Source: Candidatus Dadabacteria bacterium (lineage in GTDB: Bacteria; Desulfobacterota_D; UBA1144; Nemesobacterales; Mycalebacteriaceae). Taken from it: 64,000 nt of DNA. Position numbers and translations under genes: made by a program. Below are positions 1-6,018 of this stretch, in pieces (the first letter of the stretch is position 1; each line of letters starts with the position of its first letter). Under the pieces are notes generated by a model. That model saw only the letters and a program-made list of their open reading frames with translations. It did not search any database and was not told the origin of the DNA. Location: contig JAPOUR010000032.1 in assembly GCA_026708565.1 (NCBI GenBank), positions 9,081 through 73,080 on the forward strand, written 5' to 3'.

Positions 1-3000
1 TATGAAGCAAGCGCGAGCGGAGACAGTTCCATCTCTTTGGGTCATAGGGCAAAGGCAGGCGGGAATAGTTCCACTGCCTTGGGTCAGGCGGCTCAAGCGC
101 TGGATGTAAACACAACCGTTGTGGGTCAAGGAGCAAAAGCGGACAAAGCAAACTCTACAGCAATCGGACAGGCAGCTTATGTGAAGGGGCCGGATTCCAC
201 CTCCCTCGGTTACTTGGCAAATGCAAGCGGAGAAAGTTCAACGGCGCTTGGAGCAATGGCGCAGGCAAAAGGGCTTTTTTCAATGGCGGCGGGAACGGAA
301 ACAAACGCCGCCGGTGATTCCTCAACCGCGCTTGGGCAGGAGGCTCTGGCATTGAGCGACTCATCATCGGCATTGGGGCAAGAGGCGCGCGCAAACGGGT
401 ATGCGTCAACCGCAATCGGACATAAGGCACAGGCGACCGGGAGCAATTCTGCGGCATTCGGACAGAGTGCGGCCGCCAGAGGTGTTAGCACAACCGCGCT
501 GGGGCAGAGGGCATGGGCTGAGGGTGAAGAATCAACTGCGGTAGGTATGGATGCGCGGGCTATAGGTAATGAGTCAACTGCGATAGGTAAGGAAGCATGG
601 GCGAACATGAAGGCGTCAACCGCGCTTGGAGCGTATGCAAACGCCGCCGGAAATTCTTCTACCGCGCTTGGGCAGGAGGCTCTGGCATTGAGCGACTCAT
701 CATCGGCATTGGGGCAAGAGGCGCGCGCAAACGGGTATGCGTCAACCGCAATCGGACATAAGGCACAGGCGACCGGGAGCAATTCTGCGGCATTCGGACA
801 GAGTGCGGCCGCCAGAGGTGTTAGCACAACCGCGCTGGGGCAGATGGCACGGGCTGAGGGTGAAGACTCAACTGCGGTAGGTAAGGAAGCATGGGCGCAT
901 AAGAAGGCGTCAACGGCTCTTGGAGCGTATGCAAACGCCTCCAAAGATTCTTCAACCGCATTGGGACAGGGGGCGGAGGCGTTTGGCGTATCGTCATCGG
1001 CATTGGGGCATGCGGCGCGGGCGACCGGAGGCAATTCTGCGGCGGTTGGACAGGGGGCAAATGCGAGCGGGCATAACGCAACTGCATTGGGGCAAAAGGC
1101 ATGGGCGGCGGGTGAATCCTCAACGGCGGTGGGACAGACAACTTGGGCGCATATGAAAGCGTCAACCGCGCTTGGAGCGCATGCGAATGCCGCAGGTGAT
1201 TCTTCAACCGCGCTTGGGCAGGGGGCGTATGCAAAAGGCGATTCTTCGTCAGCATTGGGGCATCTGGCAAATGCCACCGGACTTGCGTCAACCGCAATCG
1301 GGCAGGATACACGGGCGAGCGGGGGCAACTCATCGGCATTTGGACAGGGGGCAAATGCAAGCGGTCATAACGCAACCGCATTGGGGCAAAAGGCGTGGGC
1401 TGCGGGTGAATCCTCAACGGCAGTGGGACAGATAACTTGGGCGCATAAAAAAGCATCAACTGCGCTTGGAGCGCATGCGAACGCCGCAGGTGATTCTTCA
1501 ACCGCGCTTGGGCAGGGGGCGTATGCAAAAGGCGATTCTTCGTCAGCATTGGGGCATCTGGCAAATGCCACCGGACTTGCGTCAACCGCAATCGGGCAGG
1601 ATACACGGGCGAGCGGGGGCAACTCATCGGCATTTGGACAGGGGGCACAAGCAATGGGACTTTCCTCAACTGCGGTCGGAATGGGCGCTTGGGCGCACAA
1701 GAGATCATCAACCGCTCTCGGAACGGGAGCGAATGCCGCCGGTGATTCTTCAACTGCTCTTGGAGCCAAAGCAGTTGCCAGTAAAGCAGGCACGGTTGCG
1801 GTTGGTTTTGAGGCAACGGCAAGAGGGGAAAAGTCAACGGCGTTGGGGCAGTCAGCAACCGCAAGCGGGGGAAAGTCAACGGCGCTGGGACAGGCAGCAA
1901 CGGCAAGCGGGCCACAGTCAACGGCGCTGGGACAGATAGCAACCGCAAGCGGAGAACAGTCAACAGCGTTGGGACAGATGTCAGCCGCAAGCGGAGAACA
2001 GTCAACAGCGTTGGGATGGATGGCTACGGGAAGTGCTCACATGGCAACGGCAATCGGAGCATGGTCGCGAGCGATTGAAAAGCACTCAACGGCTGTGGGT
2101 CAAGATTCAGTGGCATCCGGGCGGAATTCAACTGCTTTGGGACATGTGGCAAGGGCAAGCGGTCACAATTCCATTGCTTTGGGTCAGGGAGCACAAGCCA
2201 CCGGCACGGATGCAATAGCAATCGGGCGCGGTATAACAGCCGGAGACGACCAGATACAAATCGGTGACGCCTCTTTTGCCGATGTCAGAATCGGGAAATA
2301 CAACCTTGCCGATTTTGCAAGCGGTGGAGGGGGTTGTGGAAGCGCAATAGCAACCGGATTTCAATCGACTGCCTATTGTGAAAACGCCGTTGCGAGCGGA
2401 GACAATTCTGCGGCGTTTGGTTATGGAGCGACCGCAAACGCGCAGGGCGCAACGGCGCTGGGTCAGGCGGCGGTTGCCAACGGTGGGGCCTCAACGGCTT
2501 TGGGGCGGGGTTCGCGAGCGTCCGGTGAATCCTCAACAGCTGTGGGACATGGGGCGAGGGCAATGGATCAATTTTCAACATCTCTGGGATATCTTGCAAA
2601 GGCGCACGGTAGAAGGTCAACGGCTATTGGAACATGGGCGAGTGCGATCGGTATCAAAACAACATCTTTAGGGCACTTCGCACAGGCAAGCGGAGCCAAT
2701 TCAACATCTTTGGGGCAAGAAGCCCTGGCAAGCGGTGTAGCAACAACAGCAGTGGGGCAATACGCGCGGGCAAGCAGAGACAGGTCAACATCTTTGGGGC
2801 AGAAGGCACAGGCAAACAGAGTGCGCTCCACCGCGATAGGACAGGTGGCTCAAGCGTTGGGCAGAGACTCAACCGCCGTAGGACAGGGGGCGGAAGCAAC
2901 CCGCAACTCTACAACAGCAGTGGGGCAATACGCACGGGCAACCGGAGCCAATTCAACATCTTTGGGACGGGACGGACTGGCAAGCGGTGAAGACTCCACC

Positions 3001-6000: not shown

Positions 6001-6018
6001 GACATCCAGTTCAAGTAA
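1..6018 (+). CDS. Trimeric autotransporter adhesin (YadA/Hep_Hag head-repeat family), 5'-partial. It has more than 1990 aa of GxxSTA(L/I)GxxAxAxG head repeats, a Pro-rich linker (PQESPPRIPEPPRPPIQ) and a YadA-like anchor (GIAMAMAQQFLP...).
   Basis: Frame 1 is open from base 1, so the gene continues upstream of the window. There are dozens of about 14-aa Hep_Hag-like repeats, a C-terminal anchor motif, and an intrinsic terminator immediately downstream. Confidence 0.8.
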   Translation, partial: YEASASGDSSISLGHRAKAGGNSSTALGQAAQALDVNTTVVGQGAKADKANSTAIGQAAYVKGPDSTSLGYLANASGESSTALGAMAQAKGLFSMAAGTETNAAGDSSTALGQEALALSDSSSALGQEARANGYASTAIGHKAQATGSNSAAFGQSAAARGVSTTALGQRAWAEGEESTAVGMDARAIGNESTAIGKEAWANMKASTALGAYANAAGNSSTALGQEALALSDSSSALGQEARANGYASTAIGHKAQATGSNSAAFGQSAAARGVSTTALGQMARAEGEDSTAVGKEAWAHKKASTALGAYANASKDSSTALGQGAEAFGVSSSALGHAARATGGNSAAVGQGANASGHNATALGQKAWAAGESSTAVGQTTWAHMKASTALGAHANAAGDSSTALGQGAYAKGDSSSALGHLANATGLASTAIGQDTRASGGNSSAFGQGANASGHNATALGQKAWAAGESSTAVGQITWAHKKASTALGAHANAAGDSSTALGQGAYAKGDSSSALGHLANATGLASTAIGQDTRASGGNSSAFGQGAQAMGLSSTAVGMGAWAHKRSSTALGTGANAAGDSSTALGAKAVASKAGTVAVGFEATARGEKSTALGQSATASGGKSTALGQAATASGPQSTALGQIATASGEQSTALGQMSAASGEQSTALGWMATGSAHMATAIGAWSRAIEKHSTAVGQDSVASGRNSTALGHVARASGHNSIALGQGAQATGTDAIAIGRGITAGDDQIQIGDASFADVRIGKYNLADFASGGGGCGSAIATGFQSTAYCENAVASGDNSAAFGYGATANAQGATALGQAAVANGGASTALGRGSRASGESSTAVGHGARAMDQFSTSLGYLAKAHGRRSTAIGTWASAIGIKTTSLGHFAQASGANSTSLGQEALASGVATTAVGQYARASRDRSTSLGQKAQANRVRSTAIGQVAQALGRDSTAVGQGAEATRNSTTAVGQYARATGANSTSLGRDGLASGEDSTAIGQAAQATVTATGAIAVGKGAQATDTDAVAIGRGITAGEDQIQIGNASFADVRIGRYNLAEFLTDGSSCENAIATGFQSTACGRAFATGDNSAAFGYEANASGDSSTALGHGARASGQYSTALGQTARASGEQSTALGWMAMGNAHKATAIGAWSRATNRHSTAVGQDSFASGRNSTSLGHGARASGHNSIVLGQRAQATATGAIAVGVGSQATDTDAIAIGRGITAGDDQIQIGDASFADVRIGKYNLADFASGGGGCGSAIATGFQSTAYCENAVASGDNSAAFGYGATANAQGATALGQAAVANGGASTALGRGSRASGESSTAVGHGARAMDQFSTSLGYLAKAHGRRSTAIGTWASAIGIKTTSLGHFAQASGANSTSLGQEALASGVATTAVGQYARASRDRSTSLGQKAQANRVRSTAIGQVAQALGRDSTAVGQGAEATRNSTTAVGQYARATGANSTSLGRDGLASGEDSTAIGQAAQATGSASTAVGQYAQATGEDSTATGQAAQALGIYSTALGQGAKATKNNTTAVGQGATATGLRATAFGQSANASRDDTTAIGRIATALGVSSTAVGHNTRASGDGATAVGQFAYATANGATAVGQGTNAIGVRSTVVGQSAKSTLGNAVAIGHGAQTLGANSSVVGKGASASERDSVAIGHLARVTALDAVAIGADAIVNKDGGIAIGRHAFAGSLTVYPATGAIAIGRSARATYNDAIAIGRDVTAGESRYSHGQIRIGNVNQSDVRIGAYNLFNLLGDQLPQESPPRIPEPPRPPIQSEVDGASAGVRGAEAKAKSPIAQAGGIEVDHSRRSTNSEGTIQVGVNGSAYGYGATAATNSVAIGADASAEGEGGIAIGHGVVVGGENIAIGRNHVQGVRIGAYDIAALNAAIGTYTDTASHSETASAHARINKNRYDIGKSREEYRKGIAMAMAQQFLPVEKDSRARFGMTSSGYRGEFGIGVSAGVRLTDRIQFHLSGAADTGFDEKAFKTGFDIQFK
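304..975. repeat. Imperfect tandem duplication inside the TAA gene. The unit is about 336 bp; copy 2 lacks a 42-bp segment, and about 180 bp are 100% identical (334-516 versus 670-852).
   Basis: Direct sequence comparison. The encoded block NAAGxSSTALGQEALALSDSSSALGQEARANGYASTAIGHKAQATGSNSAAFGQSAAARGVSTTALGQ occurs twice. Confidence 0.85.
1035..1622. repeat. Tandem duplication inside the TAA gene, two copies of a 294-bp unit at about 95% identity.
   Basis: 1035-1328 matches 1329-1622. The encoded 98-aa block GANASGHNATALGQKAWAAGESSTAVGQ.TWAH.KASTALGAHANAAGDSSTALGQGAYAKGDSSSALGHLANATGLASTAIGQDTRASGG is repeated. Confidence 0.85.
2196..3030. repeat. Copy 1 of a near-identical direct repeat of about 835 bp inside the TAA gene. 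The partner copy is at 3639..4470, a period of 1443 bp.
   Basis: The identical antisense ORF artefacts at 2285-2620 and 3728-4063 reveal the duplication. Flanking segments 1960-2195 and 3400-3638 are about 85% similar. Confidence 0.9.
3639..4470. repeat. Copy 2 of the near-identical direct repeat of about 835 bp inside the TAA gene.
   Basis: See copy 1. Identity ends at ...caggcggctcaagcaacc (3030 and 4470). Confidence 0.9.

Follow-up and report, generated by a model that had tools for sequence, protein, structure and literature searches.

A giant trimeric autotransporter adhesin of a Dadabacteria-like bacterium, probably built from serial beta-roll heads closed by a non-canonical neck-type connector

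Introduction

[quoted passage not shown] The daTAA grammar of Szczesny and Lupas (2008; PMC2373917) likewise places a coiled coil after a neck. In BadA of Bartonella henselae, 24 necks are present within a single protein (PMC2483945). Here we describe a gene at positions 1–6018 of a 64,000-nucleotide (nt) stretch of contig JAPOUR010000032.1, hereafter the window, which is predicted to encode a giant TAA. The gene comes from a Dadabacteria-like bacterium that is probably associated with a sponge.

The giant protein resembles BadA in that its passenger is very long and repetitive and a recurring conserved connector delimits its modules. However, the necks of BadA separate segments of coiled-coil stalk, whereas the connectors described here separate beta-roll heads, and the stalk is just ~40 amino acids (aa) long. 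There are seven heads, compared with one or two in YadA, EibD, BoaA and BpaC. The connector also differs from the necks of these four proteins: it lacks the RQITNVAAG..DAVNxxQL consensus, is missed by the Pfam neck model PF05662, appears to be ~8–10 residues shorter and has a helix directly after Y(N/D)L. It is ordinary for a TAA to have several heads and several connectors, and a canonical TAA recovered in our searches (P0083) carries at least 11 canonical necks. What is unusual is the non-canonical connector, the direct head-to-head joints and the cysteine-paired restarts. We propose, with a probability of about 0.72, that the gene encodes a full-length TAA of serial beta-roll heads, each closed by a neck-type connector and with direct restarts of the next head.

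Results

A giant adhesin of seven heads

Frame 1 of the window stays open for 2005 codons on the forward strand, up to a stop codon at 6016–6018. The Pfam model YadA_head (PF05658) matched 48 stretches of the translation (E 8.4e-250), and parsing on the glycine that ends each rung yielded 105 clean 14-residue rungs as well as irregular ones. By its sequence, this frame is the C-terminal 2005 aa of a type Vc TAA. An earlier note on this DNA, made from the letters alone, had reported a protein of more than 1990 aa that is cut upstream. The cut is due to the window edge only, and the first 354 aa were recovered from a scaffold of the same locus (L001; ENA scaffold ROBB21-1_SAMN13943201 scaffold_15, positions 6421–7482), which gives a complete protein of ~2359 aa. 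The protein of this scaffold (P0001) is 100% identical over the whole C-terminal query. Its N-terminal 354 aa comprise a signal peptide at the start of the open reading frame (ORF) (MRKSLTQTFLTAVFLVVGAVSQA, judged by eye), two short heads and two further motif copies. We rejected a truncated gene or a pseudogene on account of the unbroken frame and the recovered N-terminus.

The complete protein contains seven heads of ~100, 117, 774, 260, 157, 471 and 52 aa, each closed by a copy of one motif with the consensus AIAIGR..QIxIG..VRIGxY(N/D)L. Copies 1 and 2 lie upstream of the window and copies 3–7, five in number, within it. Read in rung register, the motif spans ~40 residues: the last of the regular rungs (AIAIG) is succeeded by a rung of 13 residues that ends in QIxIG, by a 6-residue loop and by VRIGxY(N/D)L. 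A 28-nt string of the motif occurs exactly three times, with 0 occurrences expected in shuffled sequence, so the repetition is not due to chance. Copies 3 and 5 are identical as protein because they lie within a near-identical DNA duplication. The features of the gene within the window are as follows.

1–2226, forward strand: head block 3; with ~55 rungs of 14 aa by rung parsing it is the longest block, and it starts 31 aa before the window
2188–2325, forward strand: connector copy 3, the first in the window (GAQATGTDAIAIGRGITAGDDQIQIGDASFADVRIGKYNLADFASG); motif at nt 2212, aa 738
2308–2400, forward strand: glycine-rich linker and first two rungs of head 4; cysteine codons at 2335 and 2377, 14 aa apart
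3061–3198, forward strand: connector copy 4; motif at nt 3085, aa 1029
3181–3270, forward strand: linker and first rungs of head 5; cysteine codons at 3208 and 3247, 13 aa apart
3631–3768, forward strand: connector copy 5; motif at nt 3655, aa 1219
Codons 3778 and 3820, forward strand: cysteine pair after connector 5, at the start of head 6
5161–5298, forward strand: connector copy 6 (...AIAIGRDVTAGESRYSHGQIRIGNVNQSDVRIGAYNLFNLLGD), whose variant form includes a 5-aa insert; variant region 5128–5298
5293–5433, forward strand: segment that is rich in proline and conserved (SPPRIPEPPRPPIQSEV..VRGAEAKAKSPIAQAGG; SPPRxPxPxRPxIQSG..VRGAEAKA..SPIA), from alignment and model; it joins connector 6 to the mini-head
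5473–5631, forward strand: putative membrane-proximal mini-head of ~4 rungs, from a YadA_head match in the C-terminal fragment, beta periodicity and a model confidence (pLDDT) of 78–84
5554–5691, forward strand: connector copy 7 (GIAIGHGVVVGGENIAIGRNHVQGVRIGAYDIAALNAA), which immediately precedes the short stalk and the anchor; a helix is next in the model
5674–5799, forward strand: predicted short helical stalk (model helices H191–199 and H209–240 of the 305-aa fragment)
5800–6015, forward strand: predicted four-strand YadA-type membrane anchor, from four predicted strands after the helix and conservation among homologs

The earlier note had described a giant TAA in which one head block comes after another and every block finishes with the motif, and this agrees with the 48 YadA_head stretches and with the head-terminal position of the motif in a paralog and ~60 other proteins. 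It had placed the motif at nt 2215, 3085 and 3655, with a variant at about 5140; we located these copies at 2212, 3085, 3655 and 5128–5298. Its four motif-ended modules are thus real, and its total was one short, as the copy at 5554–5691 had been overlooked.

The motif directly follows the last Ylhead rung in all seven copies, in the small paralog and in 63 relatives. What comes after it varies. A 20-aa linker follows copy 1. After copies 2–5, ~10 glycine-rich residues lead at once into new rungs (..GGGGCGSAIATG FQSTAYCENAVASG DNSAAFGY..), with no coiled coil. Copy 6 is followed by the proline-rich segment and only copy 7 by a stalk. The Y(N/D)L part always precedes non-head sequence, be it glycine-rich, proline-rich or helical. 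A new cassette beginning with CENA(I/V)A(T/S)G...NSAAFGY had been claimed after every motif; it is found after the first three copies in the window (nt 2377, 3208 and 3820) and not after the fourth and fifth, where the proline-rich linker and the stalk stand.

Among homologs of the C-terminal 305 aa, which come from metagenome-assembled genomes (MAGs) of Candidatus Dadabacteria, the anchor region is the best-conserved part, and one homolog is named 'YadA-like family protein' by NCBI. The proline-rich segment is kept in most of the 11 aligned homologs. It is predicted to be disordered (pLDDT <50) and may be a hinge or spacer.

A connector that the canonical neck model does not see

We then asked how widespread the motif is. 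A 46-position profile of 22 motif copies was searched exhaustively against 1.84 billion representatives and gave 239 matches at E<=1e-3. The best 150 of these 239, together with earlier matches, were re-scored locally; 166 proteins had any match and 63 contained the full-length motif. Nearly all of the 63 carry one copy, which lies right before coiled-coil repeats (TNxxxIxxN) and a YadA anchor, and some are short fibre-like proteins with a coiled coil next to the motif on its C-terminal side. The Dadabacteria proteins with the C-terminal module have two copies each, and P0034 has four. YadA_head was matched in 48 of the 63 carriers and YadA_anchor in 35, whereas the canonical neck PF05662 was matched in none. 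The giant protein itself gave no Pfam match to PF05662 even at E<=10. Word-indexed searches were less productive: a 180-aa head-connector-head query returned weak head-repeat matches only, and the 46-position profile returned no matches.

Short proteins of 86–200 aa without an anchor (P0109, P0112, P0134, P0136, P0137 and P0142) have the motif followed by a coiled coil and look like orphan head-neck-coil proteins or phage fibres. A Peptidase_S74 (endosialidase chaperone) domain is present in one of the motif carriers.

Comparison with solved and annotated necks placed the first half of the motif at the same junction. In hhalign against 12 canonical necks, AIAIG..QIQIG was in register with NSVALG..TVSVG at a probability of 70%, and phmmer against BpaC (7o23) aligned the same head-neck junction. 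A profile search of the PDB matched the head-like half of the motif only, and the hhalign alignment ends before VRIGxYDL. Structures were modelled as AlphaFold2 (AF2) monomers for two pieces, the C-terminal module of the giant protein and the junction of the paralog. In the junction model (pLDDT 87.5) the roll stops at IRIG and a helix begins directly after YDL. Its head-terminal position, its mutual exclusivity with the canonical neck and this chain-level fold lead us to take the motif for this lineage's counterpart of the TAA neck, non-canonical and somewhat shorter.

The earlier note had called the element a pseudo-terminal motif. It does mark head ends, and as a neck connector it has company, since large TAAs normally have more than one neck and more than one head. 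The note had also allowed that it might be an ordinary connector. In concept this is right, with BadA and P0083 as precedents; in sequence it is not the canonical neck. The Pfam assignment of head and neck domains along the protein that had been proposed yields the heads and no PF05662.

Small relatives and a second giant adhesin

The window contains one further member of the family.

15695–17512, forward strand: small paralogous TAA of 605 aa with a head, one connector (nt 16289–16426), a stalk and an anchor, from Pfam and the AF2 model

This paralog matched YadA_head with E 1.2e-18 and YadA_anchor with E 1.4e-9 (38.3 bits). The earlier note had seen the motif there once, at the head-to-stalk junction, and we found it exactly so, at aa 199–243.

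The same connector is present, for example, in P0004, P0006 and P0007 from Candidatus Dadabacteria MAGs, in Candidatus Mycalebacterium zealandia (QMU56076.1) and in Candidatus Spongiihabitans (WP_424947693.1). The Dadabacteria set also shares the C-terminal module, namely connector, proline-rich segment, mini-head, connector and anchor. These relatives from Dadabacteria and sponge symbionts are 200–640 aa long and have one or two connectors; the giant multi-head form is seen only in the present gene, with seven, and in a paralog with at least nine. The latter lies at positions 6345–12367 of another scaffold from the same sample (L002; ENA ERZ23497942 scaffold_30), interrupted by a gap of N at 9489–9588. 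It has a similar signal peptide and the same C-terminal module. Its motifs are followed by helical-looking linkers of 20–30 aa or by TIDRAID stalk repeats, with no cysteine there. The multi-head organization is therefore a family trait, whereas the cysteine linker is specific to the gene in the window.

Cysteine pairs mark the restarted heads

All eight cysteines of the protein fall into four pairs, which are spaced 14, 14, 13 and 14 residues apart and stand after copies 2–5. Three pairs are in the window and the fourth lies upstream of it, in L001. The two cysteines of a pair stand one beta-roll rung apart, at an identical turn position of rungs one and two behind the connector. Type V passengers tolerate a low cysteine content with closely spaced pairs (PMC8151025). 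We infer that the pairs form rung-to-rung disulfides that would staple the restarted roll.

An 824-nt duplication and its assembly support

Head block 3 contains super-repeats of 294 and 336 nt, and the repeat families have periods of 42, 294 and 336 nt. An 824-nt segment of the gene is present twice with 2 mismatches, 781 nt of it being exact.

2205–3028, forward strand: duplication copy A, with a connector, the cysteine linker and most of head 4
3648–4471, forward strand: duplication copy B, with connector 5, the cysteine linker and the first part of head 6

The right edge of the duplication is sharp, and the left edge coincides with a neck. Upstream of it, identity falls to 83–92% with an offset one rung shorter. 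The offset of 1443 nt between the copies keeps the frame. Neck-coding DNA as such forms an island of ~120 nt with 93–97% identity between cassettes, including conserved synonymous sites in four copies, while the flanks are only 20–40% identical.

Three independent short-read assemblies cover parts of the gene. L001 is identical to the window over 1–715 and 4417–8000 (100%) and nearly so over 790–2257 (99.3%), with 100-N scaffold gaps in place of 716–789 and 2258–4416. Its contig ends at 2257, 10 nt into the exact repeat, and resumes at 4417, 55 nt before the repeat ends. A second assembly (L004; ERZ27276908, k141 contig) begins at 4350, and its first 122 nt match both 4350–4471 and 2907–3028. 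The third (L005; Logan, SRR10996909) begins at 5339, outside the long repeat. Downstream of their starts, L004 and L005 are 100% identical to the window. A search of genome and metagenome contigs with the C-terminal alignment found no related loci.

It is unlikely, in our judgement, that the cassettes in 2205–4471 are partly an assembly artefact, with a wrong copy number or order of the 824-nt segment. All three assemblies do fail within the gene, and no other copy of the locus came up when the JGI metagenomes and the GTDB genomes were scanned for exact matches to the 28-nt neck string. However, two of the three assemblies (L001 and L004) break at or inside the repeat edges. Such breaks are expected only if the repeat has two left and right contexts, and they therefore argue for at least two real copies of the segment; order and copy number within 2258–4349 are unconfirmed by other assemblies. 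Moreover, the 1443-nt offset preserves the frame of an ORF that is open over 6 kb, and even with a single copy of the segment at least six motif copies would be left. The earlier note's worry about a collapsed or expanded assembly is thus only partly countered by the positions of the breaks and stays fair for 2258–4349.

Connector or irregular rung

A different reading of the motif itself is that it is an irregular pair of rungs, a stutter, in one continuous giant head, so that there would be one head rather than seven. We regard this as somewhat less likely still. Several details fit it. RGITAGDDQIQIG is itself a 13-residue rung with the usual xIG end, IRIG forms a regular inner strand in the paralog model, a truncated form of the motif in P0033 (EIHIGREGQTSVRIGSSLAISTGG) returns straight to head repeats, and no coiled coil follows the internal copies 2–5. 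Against these stand three observations. The full motif comes last, ahead of a coiled coil or of the end of the head, in ~60 proteins. The sequence after Y(N/D)L is always non-head, and the roll ends there in the paralog model. Finally, a fresh start after each of these copies is signalled by the paired cysteines and by CENAxAxG, the conserved restart. We thus retain the reading of seven heads closed by connectors.

How the gene may have been built

The repeat pattern fits in-frame unequal recombination together with gene conversion, as in other repetitive adhesin genes. A trace of the latter may be visible between the window and L001: five substitutions separate the two sequences in one copy of a 294-nt repeat, and the same five recur in its other copy (1245–1275 and 1539–1569, compared with L001 8753–8783 and 9047–9077). 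There are therefore two haplotypes, each homogenized across the copies, which suggests gene conversion or strain heterogeneity behind this 30-nt patch.

The genes around the giant TAA are housekeeping genes (Asp/Glu racemase, ETF, tRNA-Pro, MnmA, a MiaB-like enzyme and HflX), and no recombinase, invertase or retroelement is among them. The neck-coding DNA does not occur elsewhere in the 64-kb window, which holds no silent cassettes. Because of this, and with one continuous ORF, the library of cassettes that the earlier note had considered is unsupported. Programmed variation, in which interchangeable head cassettes would be shuffled at the neck-coding joints to vary the surface or length of the adhesin, is the least probable of the alternatives, since the conserved neck islands between divergent flanks, the duplication edge at a neck and the two homogenized haplotypes, which suggest ongoing gene conversion, all arise passively in any repetitive adhesin gene, and neither silent cassettes nor a recombination enzyme was found in the ranges just given.

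Other features of the window

The tRNA-Pro gene (CGG) lies at 6160–6233, directly downstream of the TAA stop codon. The ORF at 6100–7350 starts too early because it overlaps this tRNA, and the real MnmA is 364 aa long. A TamB-like protein of 1140 aa (Pfam TamB, E 3.6e-38) is encoded at 34540–37962 on the reverse strand; its gene has no adjoining TamA, and its neighbours are an M23 peptidase and a DNA ligase. The TAM complex is implicated in autotransporter assembly. At 50184–51940 there are two adjacent ankyrin-repeat ORFs with 201-nt DNA repeats, a low GC content of 0.475 and a strong AT skew; the C-terminal domain of the second resembles a PD-(D/E)XK nuclease. Among the 'eukaryote-like' proteins of sponge symbionts, those with ankyrin repeats are typical. 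A 40% GC island at 30185–31772 (reverse strand) contains a DUF5677 ORF and an ORF without a Pfam match, and an AAA_21 (AbiEii-like) ATPase lies in a lower-GC stretch at 48242–49546 (forward strand). The genes in these last two regions may be horizontally acquired or defence-related.

Discussion

[quoted passage not shown] By analogy with solved necks, each connector may be a beta-to-alpha element that ends the roll and both narrows and interlocks the trimer. After copies 2–5, the glycine-rich linker of ~10 residues would restart the roll without a stalk, and the cysteine staple in the first two rungs could nucleate the new roll. The product would be a fibre of stacked heads, ~60–80 nm long as estimated from the rung count, with a short stalk at the membrane only. 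Unequal recombination that keeps the frame, acting on the 42-nt rung repeats and the near-identical neck-coding DNA, probably shaped the gene and is probably still changing it.

Several observations weigh against this picture. The anchor of the giant protein scores only 13.2 bits (E 0.095) with Pfam YadA_anchor (PF03895), below the cut-off of 22.7 bits. The AF2 model of the C-terminal 305-aa module, built from 11 sequences, is poor (pLDDT 57.7); its Foldseek matches were non-significant, though TAAs came first, and the YadA anchor 2lme was listed at a TMt of 0.46 but with E 1.1. For VRIGxYDL, which makes up the motif's second half, neither Pfam nor the PDB profile nor hhalign could detect any similarity to canonical RQITNVAAG..DAVNxxQL. 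Connector copies 2–6 break the rule that a coiled coil follows a neck, and they are therefore perhaps not folded as necks. The stretch 2258–4349 is also without independent support from the three short-read assemblies.

A bolder proposal goes beyond the main one, and we put it forward only tentatively, as doubtful at present. VRIGxY(N/D)L and the glycine-rich, cysteine-paired restart might together represent an uncatalogued class of TAA connector, one that leads from beta to beta without a coiled coil or a HANS or DALL adaptor and produces a near-stalkless fibre. Its near-identical coding DNA would then be a recombination joint that changes the number of heads in sponge symbionts.

The locus reveals no new secretion system or mechanism, and its product is a variant of a well-known protein class. 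Its importance lies in how such proteins are described. Annotation and modelling of TAAs rely on a 'domain dictionary' with a conserved neck and a fixed domain order. The connector that this locus and its paralog share with at least 60 clusters of related proteins, two of them from named sponge symbionts, escapes the Pfam neck model, and the giant versions break the order of neck and coiled coil. In the literature on Dadabacteria, we found no paper that mentions an adhesin together with sponges. The giant TAA may serve adhesion to the host or to a biofilm. If structurally confirmed, the connector would be a new type for the dictionary and would mean that heads can stack directly on one another, and the protein would be a candidate host-attachment factor for the uncultured Dadabacteria.

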